NCBI GenBank assembly: GCA_963728205.1
Contig: CAVSIV010000001.1
Span: forward strand, 736,001-800,000
DNA: 64,000 bases
Origin: an uncultured Chloroflexia bacterium
Lineage (GTDB): Bacteria > Chloroflexota > Dehalococcoidia > UBA2979
Direction: 5' to 3'
The position numbers were made by a program, and so were the translations under genes. The notes beneath the pieces are model-generated. The model had not been told where the DNA came from, ran no database searches, and worked only from the letters and a program-made list of their open reading frames with translations. Of this stretch, positions 56,176 through 63,032 are shown one piece after another (position 1 is the stretch's first letter; each line of letters begins with the position of its first letter).

Positions 56176-56371
56176 GAAGCCGATCCCCTCTCGCGGCGCG
56201 TGCCGCCTTCGGTGTCGCGGTTGCCACTGACTCGCGCCGGCGGCGCGGACGGATCACCACGGGCGCGAACGCGGGCATCGGCCGCCGCGGGCGGGCTAGC
56301 ATGGGCGCCGGCGGCGCGTCCCCGCGCGCCGTTGCGGTGATCCGGAACGAGGGCTCGTGCGAGACAGTGAT

Positions 56372-56941
56372 GTGCACGACCAGCCCACCACGATCGCGGC
56401 GCGCATCCACGCGCGCGACGCCTCGGCGCTGCGCGAGCTCTTCGAACAGGAGGGGCGGCGTGCGCTGGGGCTCGCGTACCGCGTCCTGGGTGAGCAGGCG
56501 GCCGCCGAGGACGCCGTCCAGGAGGCGTTCACCCAGCTGTGGGAGCGCGCCGCGCGGCTCGATCCCGCGGGCGGCCGCATCGAGTCGCTGCTGATGACGA
56601 TGGTTCACCGTCGCGCGATCGACCTCGCCCGCCGGCGGAGCCGGGCGCCGCGCCCGCTGCCGAGCGTCGAGCTGCTGCCGCACGTCGACGAGGAGGCGCA
56701 GGCGGTGCTCGATCACGTCGTGGAGGCGGTCTCCAGCGAGGGGCTGCGCGCGCAGCTGCGCGGGATGCTCGGTGCGCTGCCGGACGAGCAGCGCCGCGTC
56801 GTCGAGCAGGTGCACTACGACGGGCTGACGCTGCGCGAGATCGCCGAGCGCGAAGGGGTGCCGCTGGGCACGGTGAAGAGCCGGCTGCGGCTGGCGATGA
56901 CGAAGCTGACCGAGGCGATGCGAACGAGGGCGCCGCGATGA
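56372..56941 (+). CDS. ECF sigma factor (SigK-like)
   Basis: AEDAVQEAF..LW, HRRAID, LPDEQR, GVPLGTVKSRLR. Confidence 0.9.
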   Translation: MHDQPTTIAARIHARDASALRELFEQEGRRALGLAYRVLGEQAAAEDAVQEAFTQLWERAARLDPAGGRIESLLMTMVHRRAIDLARRRSRAPRPLPSVELLPHVDEEAQAVLDHVVEAVSSEGLRAQLRGMLGALPDEQRRVVEQVHYDGLTLREIAEREGVPLGTVKSRLRLAMTKLTEAMRTRAPR

Positions 56942-57738
56942 CCCGGGCGATCACCTGCGACGAGGCGCGCGAGCTCTTGCCGGGCTACGCGTTCGACGCG
57001 CTCGAGGACGACGGGCGCGAGGCGCTCGAGGCTCATCTCGGCGCCGGGCGCGAGCACGACGCGGAGCTGGTGGAGCTGCGGGCGACGGTGTTCGCGCTCG
57101 ACACGCTGGCGGATGAGCGCGAGCCGTCGGGCGCGCTGGGTGCGCGGATCGCGAGCATCACGCGGGCCGCACCGGCGGTGGGCGCCGCGGATGCGGAAGC
57201 GGCCACGGCGGCGGACGCGCCGGGCGTGGGGGTCGCGGCCGCCGGGCCGCCGGGCGACGCGGTCGCGGCGCCGTTGACGGGGGCGACCGCGCGCGGCGGG
57301 CGCCGCGCGACGCGGCTGCGCTGGGCGCTCGCCGCGGCCGCGGTGGTTGCGCTGGTCGCCGTATTTGCCGCGGGTTGGGCGGTCGGTCGCGGCGGCCGGA
57401 GCGGCGCGGCGCCGCTGTTCGCGTTCTCGGTAGAGGGCGGCGGCGGCCAGCTCGTGCGCTTCTCCGGCGTGGCCGGCGAGAGCCCCGTCAGCGTGACGAT
57501 GGCCGGCCTCCAGCGTCTGGACCCCGAGCACGCCTACGAGCTGTGGGCGATCCGCGACGGCCGGTGGATGCGCATCGGCGTCTGCAATACGAATGCGGCC
57601 GGTGGCTGGGTCGGAACGTTCCCGTTCGCGCTCCGCGCGGGCGACGACGTGGCGCTCACGATCGAGCCGGCCGGCGGCTCCGCCGCGCCAAGCTCGACGC
57701 CGATCCTGCGCCGGGGATCCGGCGCGCGGCAGGGGTGA
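56938..57738 (+). CDS. RskA-like anti-sigma factor
   Basis: ATGA overlap with the sigma gene; N-terminal ELLPGYA..AL...E.HL, one TM, YELW and LTIEPAGGS..P. Confidence 0.85.
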   Translation: MTRAITCDEARELLPGYAFDALEDDGREALEAHLGAGREHDAELVELRATVFALDTLADEREPSGALGARIASITRAAPAVGAADAEAATAADAPGVGVAAAGPPGDAVAAPLTGATARGGRRATRLRWALAAAAVVALVAVFAAGWAVGRGGRSGAAPLFAFSVEGGGGQLVRFSGVAGESPVSVTMAGLQRLDPEHAYELWAIRDGRWMRIGVCNTNAAGGWVGTFPFALRAGDDVALTIEPAGGSAAPSSTPILRRGSGARQG

Positions 57739-57896: not shown

Positions 57897-59720
57897 TCAG
57901 GCGGGCACCGAGCGCATGCCGGCCGCCTGGGTCTGCTCCGCCGCGCCGACGGGGAGCGGGTCGCCGGAGTCGTCGACCGGCCAGAGCGGCAGCGTGAAGC
58001 GAACCTCGAGGCCGCCGCCGTCGCGCGGCATGGCCCAGATGGCACCGGAGAGCGCCTCGACGAGCCGTCGGCAGACGGTGAGGCCCATCCCGACGCCCGG
58101 GGCGTCGACGCGCTCGGAGCGATAGAACCGCTCGAAGATCAGGTCCAGTTCGTGCGGCGCCACGCCGATCCCGCGGTCGAGCACGGCCACCCACGCGTGA
58201 TCGGCGTCCACGCCGGCCGTCACGTCGATGGGCTCGCCGGCACCGCTGTACTTGTCGGCGTTCGTGAGCAGGTTGTGCAGCACCTGCTCGACGTAGGTCT
58301 GCTCCGCCGCCACCAGCAGCATGTCCTGTGTGGGCGTGAACCGCACCGCGCGGTCCCCGCGGAAGTGCATGAAGCGGTCGGCGCTCGCCTGCACCACGGT
58401 ATTGAGCGACACGGGCTCGGTGCCCAGGTTCGCGCCGACCTCGACGCGGGCGAGCACCAGGAGGTCCTCCACGATGCGGCGCAGGCGCTCGGACTCGCGC
58501 GCGAGGGTCTGGACCAGCTCGGAGCGGCGCTCCGCGGAGAGGGATCGGTCGCGGGACCACAGCATCTGCGCGCTGCCGTAGACGGTCGTGAGCGGCGTGC
58601 GCATCTCGTGCGAGATCAGCGCAAGGAACTCGTCCTTCGCCTCGCTCGTGCGGCGCAGCTCCTCGCGGACCTGCTCGGATTCCGTGAACAGGCGCGCGTT
58701 CTCCACGGCGAGCGCGCAGCGGTGCGCGAGGTCCTGGCCGAGCCGGAAGTCGTCGGCGTCGTAGACGCGCTCGCTATCGCCGAGGCCGAGCGCCATCGTC
58801 CCCACCGTGCGCAGGTGCGCGACGAGCGGGAACACCATGACCGAGCGGCGCCCGAGCAGGCGCAGGTGCGCGATCTGGTCGGCGTCGAGGTGCTCGTCCG
58901 GCTCGAGGGTCGACGGGTCGAGCACGATGCCGGGCCGTTCGCCGGCGAACGCGGCGAAGGCCTCGGCGCTGTTCGGCTCGGCATGCCGCGCGGAGAGCGC
59001 CGCCTCGAGCTCGGGGTCCGCGGCGGCAATCACGCGCCGACTCTGCCAGCCGTCGGCCTCGTCGATGTCGACGATGCACGCCGTGGCGACGGTCGGCACC
59101 GCCAGCCGCGCGATGCTGCGCAGCGTCGCGTCGTAATCGAGCGAGGTAAGGATCGTGCTCGCCTCGGCGAGGAAGGCGAGCCGCCGCTGCGCCGCGCGCG
59201 CCTCCGCGAGGGCGCTCTCGCGCTGCTCGAGCAGCTCGTCCTTGGCGCCGTTTGCCGCGAGCAGCTCGCGCGTGCGCTCGTGGACCGCCTCCTCGAGCTC
59301 GATGGCGCGGCGCTCGAGCGCCGACTGCTGCGCGTCCACCTGTCGCTGCAGCGCGCTCACCTGCAGCGCGCGCGCGAGCGACGCCACGAAGTAGTCACGG
59401 TCGATCGGCTTCTGGATGAAGTCGAACGCGCCGCCGCGCAGCGCCTGCACGGCGAGGTCGCGCTCGCCGTGCCCGGTGATCAGCACGGTCGGGGTGTGCG
59501 GCCGGAAGCGCCGGATCATCGCCAGCAGGCCCAGGCCGTCGATGCCCGGCATCTTGATGTCGGTGACGATCACGTCGTAGTCGACGGCCTGGATCTGGTG
59601 AATGGCGCGCGCGGCGGACTCGCAGACGTCGACCGCGACGCCGGGCATGCGCAGCCGCAGCGCGGCCGGCAGGGCGTCGAGGAGGGCCGCGTCGTCGTCG
59701 ACGATCAGGATGCTGCTCAT
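57897..59720 (-). CDS. Hybrid receiver-GAF-histidine kinase
   Basis: ILIVDDD/TDIKMP/FIQKP receiver; GAF (LAVENARL); SHEMRTPL H-box; NLLTNA, DRGIG and GMGL motifs. Confidence 0.92.
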   Translation of the reverse strand: MSSILIVDDDAALLDALPAALRLRMPGVAVDVCESAARAIHQIQAVDYDVIVTDIKMPGIDGLGLLAMIRRFRPHTPTVLITGHGERDLAVQALRGGAFDFIQKPIDRDYFVASLARALQVSALQRQVDAQQSALERRAIELEEAVHERTRELLAANGAKDELLEQRESALAEARAAQRRLAFLAEASTILTSLDYDATLRSIARLAVPTVATACIVDIDEADGWQSRRVIAAADPELEAALSARHAEPNSAEAFAAFAGERPGIVLDPSTLEPDEHLDADQIAHLRLLGRRSVMVFPLVAHLRTVGTMALGLGDSERVYDADDFRLGQDLAHRCALAVENARLFTESEQVREELRRTSEAKDEFLALISHEMRTPLTTVYGSAQMLWSRDRSLSAERRSELVQTLARESERLRRIVEDLLVLARVEVGANLGTEPVSLNTVVQASADRFMHFRGDRAVRFTPTQDMLLVAAEQTYVEQVLHNLLTNADKYSGAGEPIDVTAGVDADHAWVAVLDRGIGVAPHELDLIFERFYRSERVDAPGVGMGLTVCRRLVEALSGAIWAMPRDGGGLEVRFTLPLWPVDDSGDPLPVGAAEQTQAAGMRSVPA

Positions 59721-60895
59721 CGCGCACCTCCCGCACCGGGCACCGGCTCGGCGCGTGCGTGGACCGGATCCACGTACCGCGGCAGGCGGACGGTGAAGAT
59801 CGCGCCGCCGTTCGGCGCGTTCTCGACGTCCACGCTGCCCTCGTGCTCCTTCACGATGCCGTAGAGGATCGACAGCCCGAGTCCGGTGCCCTGGCCCACG
59901 TCCTTGGTCGTGAAGAACGGGTCGAAGATGCGCTGGTGGAGGTCGGCCGGGATGCCCGGACCGGTGTCGCGGACCTCCACTTCGACCACGTCGCGCTGGC
60001 GCTTGCTGGAGATCGCGACACGCCGGATCGGCGCGCCGGCGAGAGCATCGCGCGCGTTGGTGAGCAGGTTAATGAAGACCTGCTCCATCTGGATGCCGTG
60101 TCCGAGCACGATCGGATCCTCGGGCGTGAGGTCGAGGCTGACCTCGATCTGGCGCAGGCGCAGCTGCTCCTGCATCAGCGAGACGGAGCGCTCGATGGCT
60201 TCGTTGAGCGAGATCGGCTCCTTGGTCAGCGGCGCCGCACGCCCGAAGGTTCGCAGGTGCGAGATGATCTCGGTCGCCTTGCGCACCTGCTGCATCGCCT
60301 TCGTGAGCTCTTCGGTCATGCGCTCCCGGTGCGTGTGTCCGAGCGCGAGCTGGTCGATCACGTTGCCGATGTAGAGCCCGATGTTGTTGAGCGGGTTGTT
60401 CAGCTCGTGCGCGACGCCGGTCGTGAGCTCGCCGAGTGTCGCCAGCTTCGCGGTCTGGACGAGCTGCTCCTGCTTCTCGCGCAGCTCCTGCTCGCGCTGC
60501 TGGATCGCCTCCGTCGTGTCGCGGAGGTCGCTCATGATGTGGATCATCGCCTTGCGGCTGTCTTCCAGCCTCAGCTTCGACCCGTGCAGGTCCTGGAGGA
60601 TGTGCATCACGGCGCGGCGCGAGCGGTCGAGACGGGCGGCCTGCTCGGCGAGCTGGCGGCGGTCGCGCTCGTAGTCGATCAGGATGTGCAGCATCGCCTT
60701 GCGCTGGTCGGAGAGGCGCCGGTTCCGCTCCGCCAGGTCGAGCATGATGTGGAGCATCGCGCGGCGGCGGTCCTCGCCTTCGCGCAGCCGCTTCTCGAGG
60801 GTCTCGATGCGCGCGCGCAGACGCTCGTCCGCTTCGACGAGTGTCTCCTGCGTGAGCGGGTCCGCTCCGACCAACGGGACGAGCTCAGTCACCAT
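59717..60895 (-). CDS. Sensor-less histidine kinase with N-terminal repeated coiled coil
   Basis: AHELNNPL H-box; NLLTNARDA, DTGPG, FFTTK, GTGLGL; no TM or PAS domain. Confidence 0.92.
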   Translation of the reverse strand: MVTELVPLVGADPLTQETLVEADERLRARIETLEKRLREGEDRRRAMLHIMLDLAERNRRLSDQRKAMLHILIDYERDRRQLAEQAARLDRSRRAVMHILQDLHGSKLRLEDSRKAMIHIMSDLRDTTEAIQQREQELREKQEQLVQTAKLATLGELTTGVAHELNNPLNNIGLYIGNVIDQLALGHTHRERMTEELTKAMQQVRKATEIISHLRTFGRAAPLTKEPISLNEAIERSVSLMQEQLRLRQIEVSLDLTPEDPIVLGHGIQMEQVFINLLTNARDALAGAPIRRVAISSKRQRDVVEVEVRDTGPGIPADLHQRIFDPFFTTKDVGQGTGLGLSILYGIVKEHEGSVDVENAPNGGAIFTVRLPRYVDPVHARAEPVPGAGGAR

Positions 60896-62571
60896 CAGGA
60901 CGTGGCCACGCGGCCTCCGCGAAGTTGCTCCATGTCGCTCCGCTGCTTCTCGAGCTCCTTCTCGAGGGCGATCATCTTGAGCTCGCGCCCGACGACCACT
61001 TCCTCGAACTTCTCGAGGTCAAGGATCTTCTCCTGGAGCTCGGACTTGGACTCCTCGAGGTCGCGCACCACGCGCTCGTACGCGCGCATGTCGCGGAGGA
61101 TGCCGATGGCGCCGATCACCTTCCCGTCGACGTCGCGGAGCGCCGAGGCGTTGAGCGTCGTGGGGATCACCTCGCCCGACGCGCTCGTCGGGTTGAGGCT
61201 GGCGTTGCGCGTCACGCCCTTCTCGACCACCTCGCGCAGCGCCTCGGTGAACTGGCGCGTCTCTTCCTGCGAGATGAAGCGCGAGAGGGACTGCTCGACC
61301 ACTTCGTCGGTGCGGAAGCCGAGGAGCCCGGAGACGGCGTCGTTGGCCAGTGTGATCTTGCCTTCGAGGTCCGAGACGAACACGGGGTCGGGGGCGTTCT
61401 CGATCAGGCTCATCGCGAACGCGCGCGCCTTGTCGAGCTCGCGCATGTCGCGAAGGATGCCGATGACGCCGATCACGACGCCGTCGGGGTCGCGCAGGGC
61501 GGACGCGTTGAGGCTCGTGGAGATGACCTCGCCCGAGACGCTTCTCGGGTTGAGGAGCACGTTGCGCGTGACGCCCTTCTCCACCACCTCGCGAAGGGCC
61601 GCAGTGAACTCCCTGGCCTCCTCGGCGGAGATGAACTGGGAGAGCGACTGCTCGACCACCTCGTCGGTGCGGAACCCGAGGAGCTGGAACACCGCGTCGT
61701 TGGCCTGGAGGATCTTCCCTTCGAGGTCCGAGACGAAGACGGGGTCGGGGGCGTTCTTGATCAGGCTCTCGGCGTAGGCGCGGGCTTTGTCGAGCTCGCG
61801 CATGTCGCGGAGGATGCCGATGGCGCCGATCACCTCGCCGTCGGGGTCGCGGAGGGCCGACGCGTTGAGCGTGGTGGAGATGACCTCGCCCGAGGCGCTG
61901 CGCGGGTTGAGGAGGACGTTGCGCGTGACGCCCTTCTCGACGACCTCGCGCAGGGCGGCGGTGAACTCGCGCGTCTCCTCGGGGGAGATGAAGCGGGAGA
62001 GCGACTGCTCGACGACTTCGTCGGGGCGGAAGCCGAGCAGCTGGGAGACCGCGTCGTTGGCGAGGGTGATCTTGCCCTCGAGGTCCGAGACGAACACGGG
62101 GTCGGGGGCGTTCTTGATCAGGCTCTCGGCGTAGGCGCGGGCTTTGTCGAGCTCGCGCATGTCGCGGAGGATGCCGATGGCGCCGATCACGACCCCGTCG
62201 GGGTCGCGCAGCGCGGCCGCGTTCAGCGTGGTGGCGATGATCTCGCCGGAGGCGCTGCGCGGGTTGAGGACCGCGTTGCGCGTGACACCGTGCTCCACGA
62301 CCTCGTCGAGGGCGGCGAGGAACTCGCGCGTCTCCTCGGGCGAGATGATGCGGGAGAGCGACTGCTCGACGAGCTCGTCGGGGCGGAAGCCGAGGAGCTC
62401 GAAGACCGCGGCGTTCGCCTGCAGGATCTTGCCTTCGAGATCGGAGACGAACACCGGGTCGGGGGCGTTCGCGATGATGATGTCGGCAGCGAGGGCGCTG
62501 CCGGCGCGTAGCTGATCGCGCTCACGTTCTGCCGTCGCGGTCCGTGCGCGCGCGCCCGAATCAGCCTTCAC
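60895..62571 (-). CDS. Tandem 4xPAS protein with C-terminal coiled-coil tail, no catalytic domain
   Basis: Four 119-aa PAS/PAC repeats (APDPVFVSDLEGKI...GILRD); GGAGG before the GTG start. Confidence 0.9.
   Translation of the reverse strand: MKADSGARARTATAERERDQLRAGSALAADIIIANAPDPVFVSDLEGKILQANAAVFELLGFRPDELVEQSLSRIISPEETREFLAALDEVVEHGVTRNAVLNPRSASGEIIATTLNAAALRDPDGVVIGAIGILRDMRELDKARAYAESLIKNAPDPVFVSDLEGKITLANDAVSQLLGFRPDEVVEQSLSRFISPEETREFTAALREVVEKGVTRNVLLNPRSASGEVISTTLNASALRDPDGEVIGAIGILRDMRELDKARAYAESLIKNAPDPVFVSDLEGKILQANDAVFQLLGFRTDEVVEQSLSQFISAEEAREFTAALREVVEKGVTRNVLLNPRSVSGEVISTSLNASALRDPDGVVIGVIGILRDMRELDKARAFAMSLIENAPDPVFVSDLEGKITLANDAVSGLLGFRTDEVVEQSLSRFISQEETRQFTEALREVVEKGVTRNASLNPTSASGEVIPTTLNASALRDVDGKVIGAIGILRDMRAYERVVRDLEESKSELQEKILDLEKFEEVVVGRELKMIALEKELEKQRSDMEQLRGGRVATS
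61087..62480. repeat. 357-bp intragenic tandem repeat x4
   Basis: GTCGGGGGCGTTC anchor at 61387, 61744, 62101 and 62458. Confidence 0.9.
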
Positions 62572-63032
62572 GATCCTCGCCTCCAGCCCGGGTGAGCCCG
62601 ATCCACGCAAGAAAACCCGCGCCACCATACGCAGGCACTCGGAGGCGGCGTATTGCGGAATCGCGACACGCTGGGACTGGCGATGTTGAGGATTCGTAAC
62701 ACTCGATACAGAGCGGACGCTCGGCGGTCCGCGCAGATGCGCCGGGCGGTCCGGGACGCCGCTGGACGCCCGAGGCCGGGCAAGAGGGCGTCCAGCGGCG
62801 CGACTAGCGGTGGCGACGCCGCGGCGGGTCGATCACGAACAGGCCGACGGCGAGGGGCCGCCGATCGCAATCTGCGCTGCGCGTGGAGCATGACGAGGGA
62901 CCAATGGCCGGTCTTCCGGGTGACCTTCGCCCCGGGGACGAGGCCCGCCTCGGCTCATCCTCGACCCGGGCGCGGCCTATGATGGCGCCGCTGCGCTCGT
63001 CCGGTCGGACGCGGCCGCTTTCGAGGGAGGGC

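Follow-up and report, generated by a model that had tools for sequence, protein, structure and literature searches.

Several forms are known in which a bacterial histidine kinase is regulated by a sensor made as a separate protein. H-NOX proteins often regulate histidine kinase activity, as stated in the available part of the source (PMC4436077), and the single-domain PAS protein MopJ of Caulobacter acts, according to the accessible part of the paper describing it, via contact with the kinase DivJ, an interaction found genetically and by co-purification (PMC4432633). Here we analyzed a three-gene locus in a stretch of 64,000 nucleotides from an uncultured Chloroflexia bacterium (GenBank assembly GCA_963728205.1, contig CAVSIV010000001.1, positions 736,001 to 800,000), the whole of which is called the window below. 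The locus encodes a PAS-only protein that ends in a conserved tail, a histidine kinase with no sensor domain that opens with a motif-bearing stalk, and a protein headed by a REC domain. We found that it is one member of a widespread three-gene signalling cassette composed of PAS-tail sensor, stalk kinase and REC-headed protein. Its three genes are inherited together and lie next to one another, usually with overlapping or nearly touching stop and start codons; they are never fused and occur as one cassette per genome, and the pair of tail and stalk motif recurs beside other kinase types and GGDEF cyclases. We consider it rather probable that the PAS protein works as the sensor of the kinase in trans, with its tail on patches of the stalk and with changes in the PAS domains relayed via the stalk to the DHp domain.

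The H-NOX/HnoK pairs resemble this locus in that an output-less sensor gene adjoins a kinase gene, and in that the sensor protein, going by the part of the H-NOX source at hand, regulates the kinase in trans, as the PAS protein of the window cassette probably does. They differ in that the window sensor is a tandem PAS array and not a heme H-NOX domain; the H-NOX family is absent from the Pfam listing for the PAS protein, where the well-matched stretches above cut-off belong to PAS families only. The window pair also has a tail and stalk motifs as dedicated, conserved helical modules, seen with other outputs as well, and we found no such modules described for H-NOX systems. MopJ is, like the window protein, a PAS-only protein acting on a histidine kinase, an action that is probable for the window; it differs in having a single PAS domain and no tail or stalk motif mentioned in the available part of its source, the two proteins being compared by description only. 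In split kinases such as CheA3:CheA4 one kinase function is spread over two complexed polypeptides, and ATP binding and phosphotransfer reside by definition on two different proteins, as given in the accessible part of the paper (Amin, Porter and Soyer 2013; PMC3591291). In the window the DHp and catalytic domains stay together and the sensor is the separate part, and the window pair is not a split kinase in that published sense.

For the downstream step the nearest described protein is LvrB of Leptospira, called a prototype of Rec-controlled kinases in the part of the source available (PMC13269768): the third gene of the window likewise encodes a REC-headed kinase, and in structure the modelled core of the window kinase comes closest to LvrB chains. 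This likeness covers the downstream step only, and other loci of the cassette have REC-REC or REC-HisKA-HATPase-REC at this place. The stalk itself invites comparison with the signalling helix (S-helix) linkers of sensor kinases and cyclases, reportedly described by Anantharaman, Balaji and Aravind in 2006, since it appears to be a heptad-phased helix running into the DHp domain and since single copies of its motif lie 21-22 residues before HisKA or GGDEF domains in other proteins. To our knowledge, the S-helix description includes neither the LN..ED/LH..D patch and its tandem arrays nor the association with a tail-bearing neighbour; in the sequences read, the LN..ED/LH..D motif lies upstream of an ..ERT.. 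stretch.

Searches of the literature by concept brought up the H-NOX, MopJ and split-kinase work and nothing on the tail and stalk modules, and the tail and stalk motif strings occur in no relevant paper of the literature searched, subscription-only papers and supplements being outside its scope. Sequence searches of the PDB with the stalk, the tail and an array of AxLNILED motifs from distant kinases gave nothing below E 0.07 (best E 0.07-0.8). A trans-acting sensor with its kinase is a known kind of system, whereas the two modules and their pairing we could not find described. PAS proteins without an output and kinases without a sensor are frequent orphans when genomes are annotated, and a sequence rule for the pairing of sensor and transmitter would allow partners to be predicted from sequence and adjacency alone.

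Gene layout in the window and in its relatives

The three genes of the window lie on the minus strand. The PAS-only sensor gene (60895-62628) encodes 577 residues from its first ATG, with four PAS domains and no output domain; in the database cluster the protein begins at 62571 and has 558 residues. Pfam recognizes four PAS stretches (E 1e-79) and no further domain. The stop of this gene overlaps the start of the kinase gene (59717-60895, 392 residues) in the TGATG at 60893-60897, and the third open reading frame (ORF; 57897-59720, 607 residues, REC-GAF-HisKA-HATPase_c by ORFs and Pfam) starts at 59720 and shares four bases with the end of the kinase ORF at 59717. The kinase has a HisKA (DHp) domain at residues 154-220 (60236-60436; Pfam 27.3 bits vs a cut-off of 26.9), with the phospho-acceptor His163 (60407-60409) in ..GVAHELNNPL.., and a HATPase_c domain at residues 268-373 (59777-60094; Pfam E 5e-26), both in one chain. 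All 94 relatives that we aligned share His163 and the HATPase_c residues N280, D310, G312, G314, G338 and G340, and the top Foldseek matches of the modelled core are histidine kinases, the core resembling LvrB, YF1 and HK853. The kinase is an ordinary HisKA/GHKL enzyme. Its residues 1-153 and the last ~60 residues of the PAS protein have no Pfam match even at E up to 10, and in NCBIfam only whole-protein kinase and PAS models reach partly into these two parts. The preliminary description of this DNA, made from its letters before any search, had the layout exactly: a protein of four PAS domains without output, a coiled-coil tail, the TGATG overlap and a sensor-less histidine kinase.

Adjoining, overlapping ORFs in a metagenome-assembled genome could come from one gene broken by an assembly error or a recent frameshift, and the relatives of the two proteins bear directly on this. 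Kinase residues 25-140 gave 3281 protein matches at E<=1e-3, among proteins of 215-686 residues. The best 120 of the 3281 are short (mostly ~370-390 residues, with some fragments), have kinase domains only or none, and are ~72% identical over the stalk; source names of the listed matches include Betaproteobacteria, Gemmatimonadales and Deltaproteobacteria. Tail residues 520-577 gave 2064 protein matches of 317-1010 residues, the best 120 of which are PAS-only with no HisKA or HATPase_c in any, and the two tail matches above 1010 residues are PAS-only as well. HMMER with the stalk over 1.84 billion representatives yielded only 200 matches at E<=1e-3, and among the best 150 of these no match lies in a protein of >662 residues. 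The cassette is large, with thousands of protein clusters at 90% identity for each partner.

We then compared 84 loci, 4 of them full-length from species genomes (Acidobacteria, Pirellulaceae, Planctomycetaceae and Actinomycetes metagenome-assembled genomes) and 80 from metagenomes; the metagenome loci, like the public runs matching the window, are mostly from soil. In 80 of the 84, an ORF ending ILDLEKFEEVVVGRELKMIALEKE lies immediately upstream of the repeat kinase. Of the other four loci, three have <100 nt upstream, and the fourth (L161) carries only the last two motifs. The tail ORF and the kinase ORF are separated by a stop in every case, while their relative frame varies: they are in frame with one stop between, mostly TAG, at 19 loci (L086, L087, L089, L093-L097, L099, L117, L118, L126, L147, L148, L150 and L154-L157), and in other frames elsewhere. 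There is no sign of read-through as a rule, and the varying frames together with the constant stop leave no room for a design based on a conserved frameshift or on read-through. For the junctions we took whichever possible start codon was closest to the stop, a choice that biases the count toward short distances; on this basis 45 of 81 loci have overlaps of 1 or 4 bases, and 80 of the 81 have gaps of <=21 nt.

One database protein does join the tail and the kinase in a single chain (P0333, 424 residues, from a metagenome); it is garbled along its whole length and resembles a frameshift or sequencing error, not a natural fusion. Against this single case stand the split kept in all 80 tail-bearing loci and in differing frames, the missing kinase domains in the best 120 tail proteins and in the two longest ones, and the upper length of the stalk proteins among the best 150 representatives. 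The comparison of relatives refutes the broken-gene explanation, to which we give practically no chance. A fused gene split by an indel had been raised by the preliminary description against its own proposal, and no locus with a single ORF was found.

The third member of the cassette is as regular as the first two at its head. A REC domain follows directly after the kinase in 54 of the 56 loci with >=400 nt downstream, both misses being shortened kinase ORFs. In the window this REC head (59379-59711, minus strand) is the conserved part of the third gene, the remainder of which differs between loci: REC is followed by a GAF-kinase in the window, and the corresponding proteins are REC-REC in L083 and REC with HisKA-HATPase-REC in L101.

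The tail and the stalk

The PAS-coding part of the sensor gene is a tandem array (61083-62475, minus strand; Tandem Repeats Finder: period 357 bp, 3.9 copies, 85% matches, no indels). Among the matches listed, the lengths of the tail-protein relatives cluster at ~317, 436, 555 and 674 residues and reach 1078, which indicates differing numbers of PAS units. Each PAS unit stays ~80% identical across phyla although the copy number varies widely between close relatives. The sequences suggest that whole PAS units may be gained and lost rapidly under strong purifying selection. Mean column identity is 87% for the four-PAS sensors and 72% for the kinase relatives.

The tail LEKFEEVVVGRELKMIALEKEL occupies residues 538-559 of the 577 and is followed by 18 more; the match to FEEVVVGRELKMI in the PAS protein leaves 24 residues to the C-terminus, inside the ~40 by which we defined a tail module. 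The definition further asks for the pattern ..F..hhh[GDN]RE.[KR]M[IV].L.. in a protein lacking an output domain and, for its partner, for one or more [RK]A.[LIMF][HN][IL][LM].D motifs in a helical stretch that precedes the output domain of the next same-strand gene; the window pair fits both parts. The surrounding block of 36 residues, DLEESKSELQEKILDLEKFEEVVVGRELKMIALEKE (60955-61062, minus strand), hardly varies on any face of the helix among 79 loci. The AlphaFold2 (AF2) monomer model of the PAS protein has a helix at residues 488-554 of the 558-residue form with a predicted local distance difference test (pLDDT) of 70-79, in a model that is poor elsewhere (mean pLDDT 51.5), and the tail is predicted to be one long helix.

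The stalk of the kinase carries four copies of one motif, R[RK]A..HI[ML].D, which together span 60524-60766 on the minus strand, ahead of the HisKA domain that begins at residue 154: RRAMLHIMLDL (residues 44-54, His49, 60734-60766), RKAMLHILIDY (residues 65-75, His70, 60671-60703), RRAVMHILQDL (residues 93-103, His98, 60587-60619) and RKAMIHIMSDL (residues 114-124, His119, 60524-60556). The four motifs and their histidines, with spacings of 21, 28 and 21, are as first reported. In the alignment of 94 relatives, His49 and His70 are invariant and His98 and His119 are each His in 93 with Asn in the remaining one, a conservation of the motif histidines that, from this alignment, lies far beyond chance. 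His104 is likewise invariant, and the motifs are rich in Met.

Every seventh position of the stalk, from 26, 33 and so on to 145, is hydrophobic in 16 of 18 cases, and the position four residues on is hydrophobic only within the motifs (M51, L72, L100, M121), with Arg, Asn or Lys in between. This suggests that the stalk may be a single unbroken heptad register with a sparse core, running from residue 26 into the DHp domain, as read from the hydrophobic periodicity. The outside of a two-stranded coiled coil is expected to hold variable 'f' columns, and the variable columns of the stalk are indeed mostly at heptad 'f' (35, 63, 77, 84, 91, 105, 112 and 126). The four motif histidines likewise fall at 'f', flanked by Ala at 'c', Gly at 'b' and hydrophobic residues at 'e' and 'g'. 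Each chain would then present a flat, greasy, outward-facing patch centred on His at four levels. Nearly all other faces of the stalk are conserved too in the 94 kinases, and such all-round constraint of tail and stalk is expected for helices buried by partners and not for spacers. The AF2 monomer model of the kinase has helices at 13-103 and 110-184 (mean pLDDT 78); the break at residues 104-109, which is conserved, separates motif 3 from motif 4.

The invariance of His49 and His70, the near invariance of His98 and His119, the additional invariant His104 and the many Met neighbours might also be explained if the four histidines bound metal or heme and the stalk itself were a redox or metal sensor, an alternative that the preliminary description had offered in the form of binding across the dimer. 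However, one member of the window family has Asn at the fourth site, and in the related arrays of 21-residue repeats, as in each of the 13 single-motif neighbours described below, the equivalent position is Asn. At the inferred heptad position 'f' the two histidines of a parallel dimer would point apart, and those of the same chain, 21-28 residues from each other, would be too far apart to share a ligand on a straight helix. The change of His to Asn in relatives and the outward heptad position make a metal or heme ligand quite unlikely in our view.

Genome co-occurrence and distant relatives

In a sample of 401 genomes of the phylum, 23 carry the repeat stalk, one copy each, and the same 23 carry the tail, also one each, on the same contig and within a few hundred bases of the stalk match. 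The genome of the window (89% complete) has a single tail and a single repeat stalk. Neither module occurs in the other 378 genomes of the sample, save for one weak tail match (E 7e-6) in the genome G065. There, a multi-PAS protein ending ERFQKLTVGRELKMIELKNEIEELKNRSVKE overlaps with its end the start of a 402-residue kinase that opens with six 21-residue repeats ..QRAxLNIL[ED]D, and a single REC follows. The kinases of the window and of G065 are 27% identical overall and belong to different subfamilies, their best NCBIfam neighbours being AtoS/FixL for the former and LvrA/PhoR/WalK for the latter. The two PAS proteins are 26% identical, and the stretch kept best between them is the tail. We also considered the tail (VVGRELKM) as a degenerate H-box (V[AS]HEL[RN]); Pfam HisKA matches neither tail, even at E up to 10, and we gave up this reading as unsupported.

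Arrays of 5-9 copies of AxLNILED also head several of the weaker HMMER matches of the stalk, one of them a His version (ALLHILED). A second sample covered 391 genomes of the phylum to which the L039 genome belongs, Thermodesulfobacteriota. Three of the 391 have AxLNILED-array kinases, and all three of these have a multi-PAS ORF ...ELERFQ[KR]LTVGRELKMIELKKEIEELK directly upstream. Altogether, an upstream tail protein of the form ...VGRELKMIELK was found for 4 of 4 distant AxLNILED kinases. The AxLNILED array had no match in plasmids by tblastn. Four further loci that seemed to match the N-terminus (L020, L057, L034 and L059) are ordinary membrane or multi-PAS kinases with no motifs.

The several motifs in each kinase, 3, 4 or 6 in the cassette and up to 9 in the distant arrays, would fit a hub at which several different, separately encoded tail-bearing sensors dock on one kinase, one per motif; a multi-input hub of separately encoded sensors had been proposed in the preliminary description. 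Exactly one tail and one repeat kinase per genome, in the genome of the window and in each of the other 22, do not support such a hub of several different sensors, and of the further tail-bearing proteins which that description suggested counting in this genome none was found. The number of PAS copies (1 to 6+ in the loci, and by length up to ~eight) varies independently of the number of motifs, which also speaks against a hub. The only hint of several tails per genome is G627 in the second sample, which has five tail-like matches, one strong and four weak, yet one AxLNILED-array kinase. We regard the hub as very improbable.

The tail of the AxLNILED family, used as a query, has matches in 55 of the 391 genomes. 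Among the best 30 loci, which we read, 3 are the array kinases and the other 27 share a broader module, ..LE[RK][FW]x[RK]..[VIL][GDN]RE.[KR]M[IV].LK..N.L..G. It lies 2-38 residues before the stop of an output-less PAS protein in 23 of the 27 and is internal in 4, where ~208 residues containing a V4R domain follow. In these internal-module loci (L183-L185 and L190, and also L210, L211, L215 and L234) the 'tail' links PAS in cis to the small-molecule-binding V4R. For each locus we took ~6 kb downstream and searched it with the strict pattern A.[LIMF][HN][IL][LM].D. Exactly one strict motif, embedded in ..[RK]A.LN[LI][ML]ED, is present in a same-strand downstream ORF in 13 of the 22 assessable loci, in 8 of them in the very next ORF, and those 180 kb contain no further strict match in six frames. 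In the other 9 of the 22 there is no motif within ~6 kb downstream of the tail-like module. As a control, 76 tail-less loci centred on kinases (932 kb), drawn from other phyla than the broad-class loci, gave one motif match. The genome of the window has two doubtful motif matches outside the cassette in 4.1 Mb, and 428 kb of loci of the family have none outside the kinases.

The proteins carrying a single motif are of several kinds. The motif starts 22 residues before HisKA in the hybrid kinases of L209, L216, L221 and L228, occurs in the HisKA_3 kinases of L212 and L213, and is found in GGDEF cyclases, 21 residues before GGDEF in L219/L220 and between HAMP and PAS in L232; thus it lies 21-22 residues ahead of HisKA or GGDEF in 6 loci. 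Some of the loci are near-duplicates (L219/L220; L212/L231/L233), and once these are considered roughly five distinct types remain. Modules beside three kinds of DHp and beside GGDEF cyclases suggest a general mechanism acting on the signalling helix. The tail gene is followed in L216 and L221 by a PAS-STAS ORF and then by the motif-bearing hybrid kinase, and in L217 by a CheR-like ORF. Broad-class loci with PAS-STAS or CheR-like genes in between may be larger signalling modules.

The preliminary description had pointed to GRELxM tails and AMLNILED-like motifs in other signalling proteins, and both were verified in the distant arrays and in the broad class. The co-occurrence of tail and motif, which it had named as a check, was found in 23 of 23 genomes with repeats, in 4 of 4 distant arrays and in 13 of 22 broad loci, vs the one match in 932 kb of control. 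Its plug and socket reading stood as regards the split pair and the association of tail and motif in neighbouring genes, which is broader than it had proposed, and found no support as regards the hub of many sensors. The residue pairings that it put forward for the contact, R/K with Asp and Glu with RR/RK, stay at the level of a proposal, as does docking itself.

Putative docking of the tail on the stalk

Our analysis points to the following mechanism. A cytoplasmic sensor, composed of tandem PAS domains and the invariant C-terminal helical tail LEKFEEVVVGRELKMIALEKE, would act in trans as the sensor of the kinase, the first ~150 residues of which would form a heptad-phased stalk into the DHp domain with 3-6 patches [RK][RK]A[ML]xHI[ML]xD. 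The tail would be the output of the sensor and would pack on the outward-facing, His/Asn-centred patches of the stalk, with Ala at 'c', hydrophobic residues at 'e' and 'g' and Gly at 'b'. A ligand-driven change in the PAS array might then alter the geometry of the stalk and with it autophosphorylation at His163, and the phosphoryl group would pass to the REC head of the third protein. Since the third protein here is a REC-GAF-kinase, the output would be a second, REC-controlled kinase. With a single gene as the source of the tail, the 3-6 patches may be loaded with multiple copies of one sensor and not with different sensors.

As a rule of gene neighbours, the plug and socket pairing is well supported by the sequence comparisons. 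We infer the contact of tail and stalk, its geometry and the direction of regulation. A prediction of the complex from alignments, with two copies each of kinase residues 1-235 and tail residues 497-558, scored 0.00 vs a mark of 0.32, the fold of the partner being uncertain, and carries no weight for or against binding. Several points weigh against the mechanism. The 9 motif-less loci and the 4 internal modules indicate that a tail does not always imply a nearby socket, and kin genomes and near-duplicate loci mean fewer independent events than loci. In P0251, a 555-residue relative of the kinase, a GAF domain is joined in cis to a four-motif stalk and kinase, with no tail sequence, so the repeats also serve as an ordinary signal-carrying stalk. 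P0251 agrees with a stalk that relays signals regardless of their point of entry, and leaves room for a role of the motifs of their own. The periodicity behind the heptad register and the foreign phyla of the control loci count on the same side.

In a rival reading, the tail would be a coiled coil for homo-oligomerisation of the PAS protein only, and contact of the sensor with the kinase, if there is any, would be made by the PAS domains. The motifs of the stalk would then have their own role as a rigid or hinged signal helix, as a site for the REC protein, or as a temperature or redox sensor. Tail-like modules with no motif in the next 6 kb, modules internal before V4R, a GAF-fused relative that keeps its repeats without a tail and single motifs in ordinary inter-domain linkers 21-22 residues before HisKA or GGDEF all agree with it, and the modelled break at 104-109 could be a hinge. 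However, it leaves unexplained that a tail protein stands beside every repeat kinase examined, that the tail is the best-kept part of two PAS proteins otherwise 26% identical, and that all 13 motif matches in the 180 kb lie downstream of the tail gene and on its strand. We consider a purely homo-oligomeric tail rather unlikely and keep the trans-acting sensor, with its tail on the stalk, as the reading that we favour.

The co-occurrence of tail and motif in neighbouring genes across many bacteria suggests a way of plugging sensors into signalling enzymes that has not been described. As a tentative extension, which we hold as possible and not as probable, we speculate that the tail and the LN..ED/LH..D patch make up a portable docking code, by which any PAS sensor ending in the tail could plug, in trans, into a transmitter encoded next to it by way of the signalling helix of that transmitter, be it a HisKA, HisKA_3 or hybrid kinase or a GGDEF cyclase. 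Arrays of 3-9 patches might load several copies of the sensor per kinase dimer and so give a cooperative or graded response. The logic would be comparable to that of the docking domains of modular synthases. If such a code holds true, the partners of many tail-ending PAS-only proteins would become predictable, and signalling could be rewired by moving the pair into other systems.

A few further observations concern the surroundings of these genes. In L193/L218 (G728:C13), a protein with a PilS-like six-helix membrane domain and PAS has the tail module WHKLTVGRELKMVELKK at its end and lacks a kinase domain; by eye, the next ORF is aspartyl-tRNA synthetase-like, no motif lies within 6 kb, and the partner, if any, is elsewhere. 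Among public sequencing runs, 20 soil and other metagenome runs match parts of the window stretch, the best with 0.43 of its words; no short contig from those 20 runs spans position 60895 with 31 letters on each side, and no RNA run is listed among the public runs matching the window stretch. Just beyond the cassette, on the opposite strand (56357-57738, plus), the window has an ORF that by eye resembles an ECF-type (extracytoplasmic function) sigma factor (194 residues), followed by an anti-sigma-like ORF.

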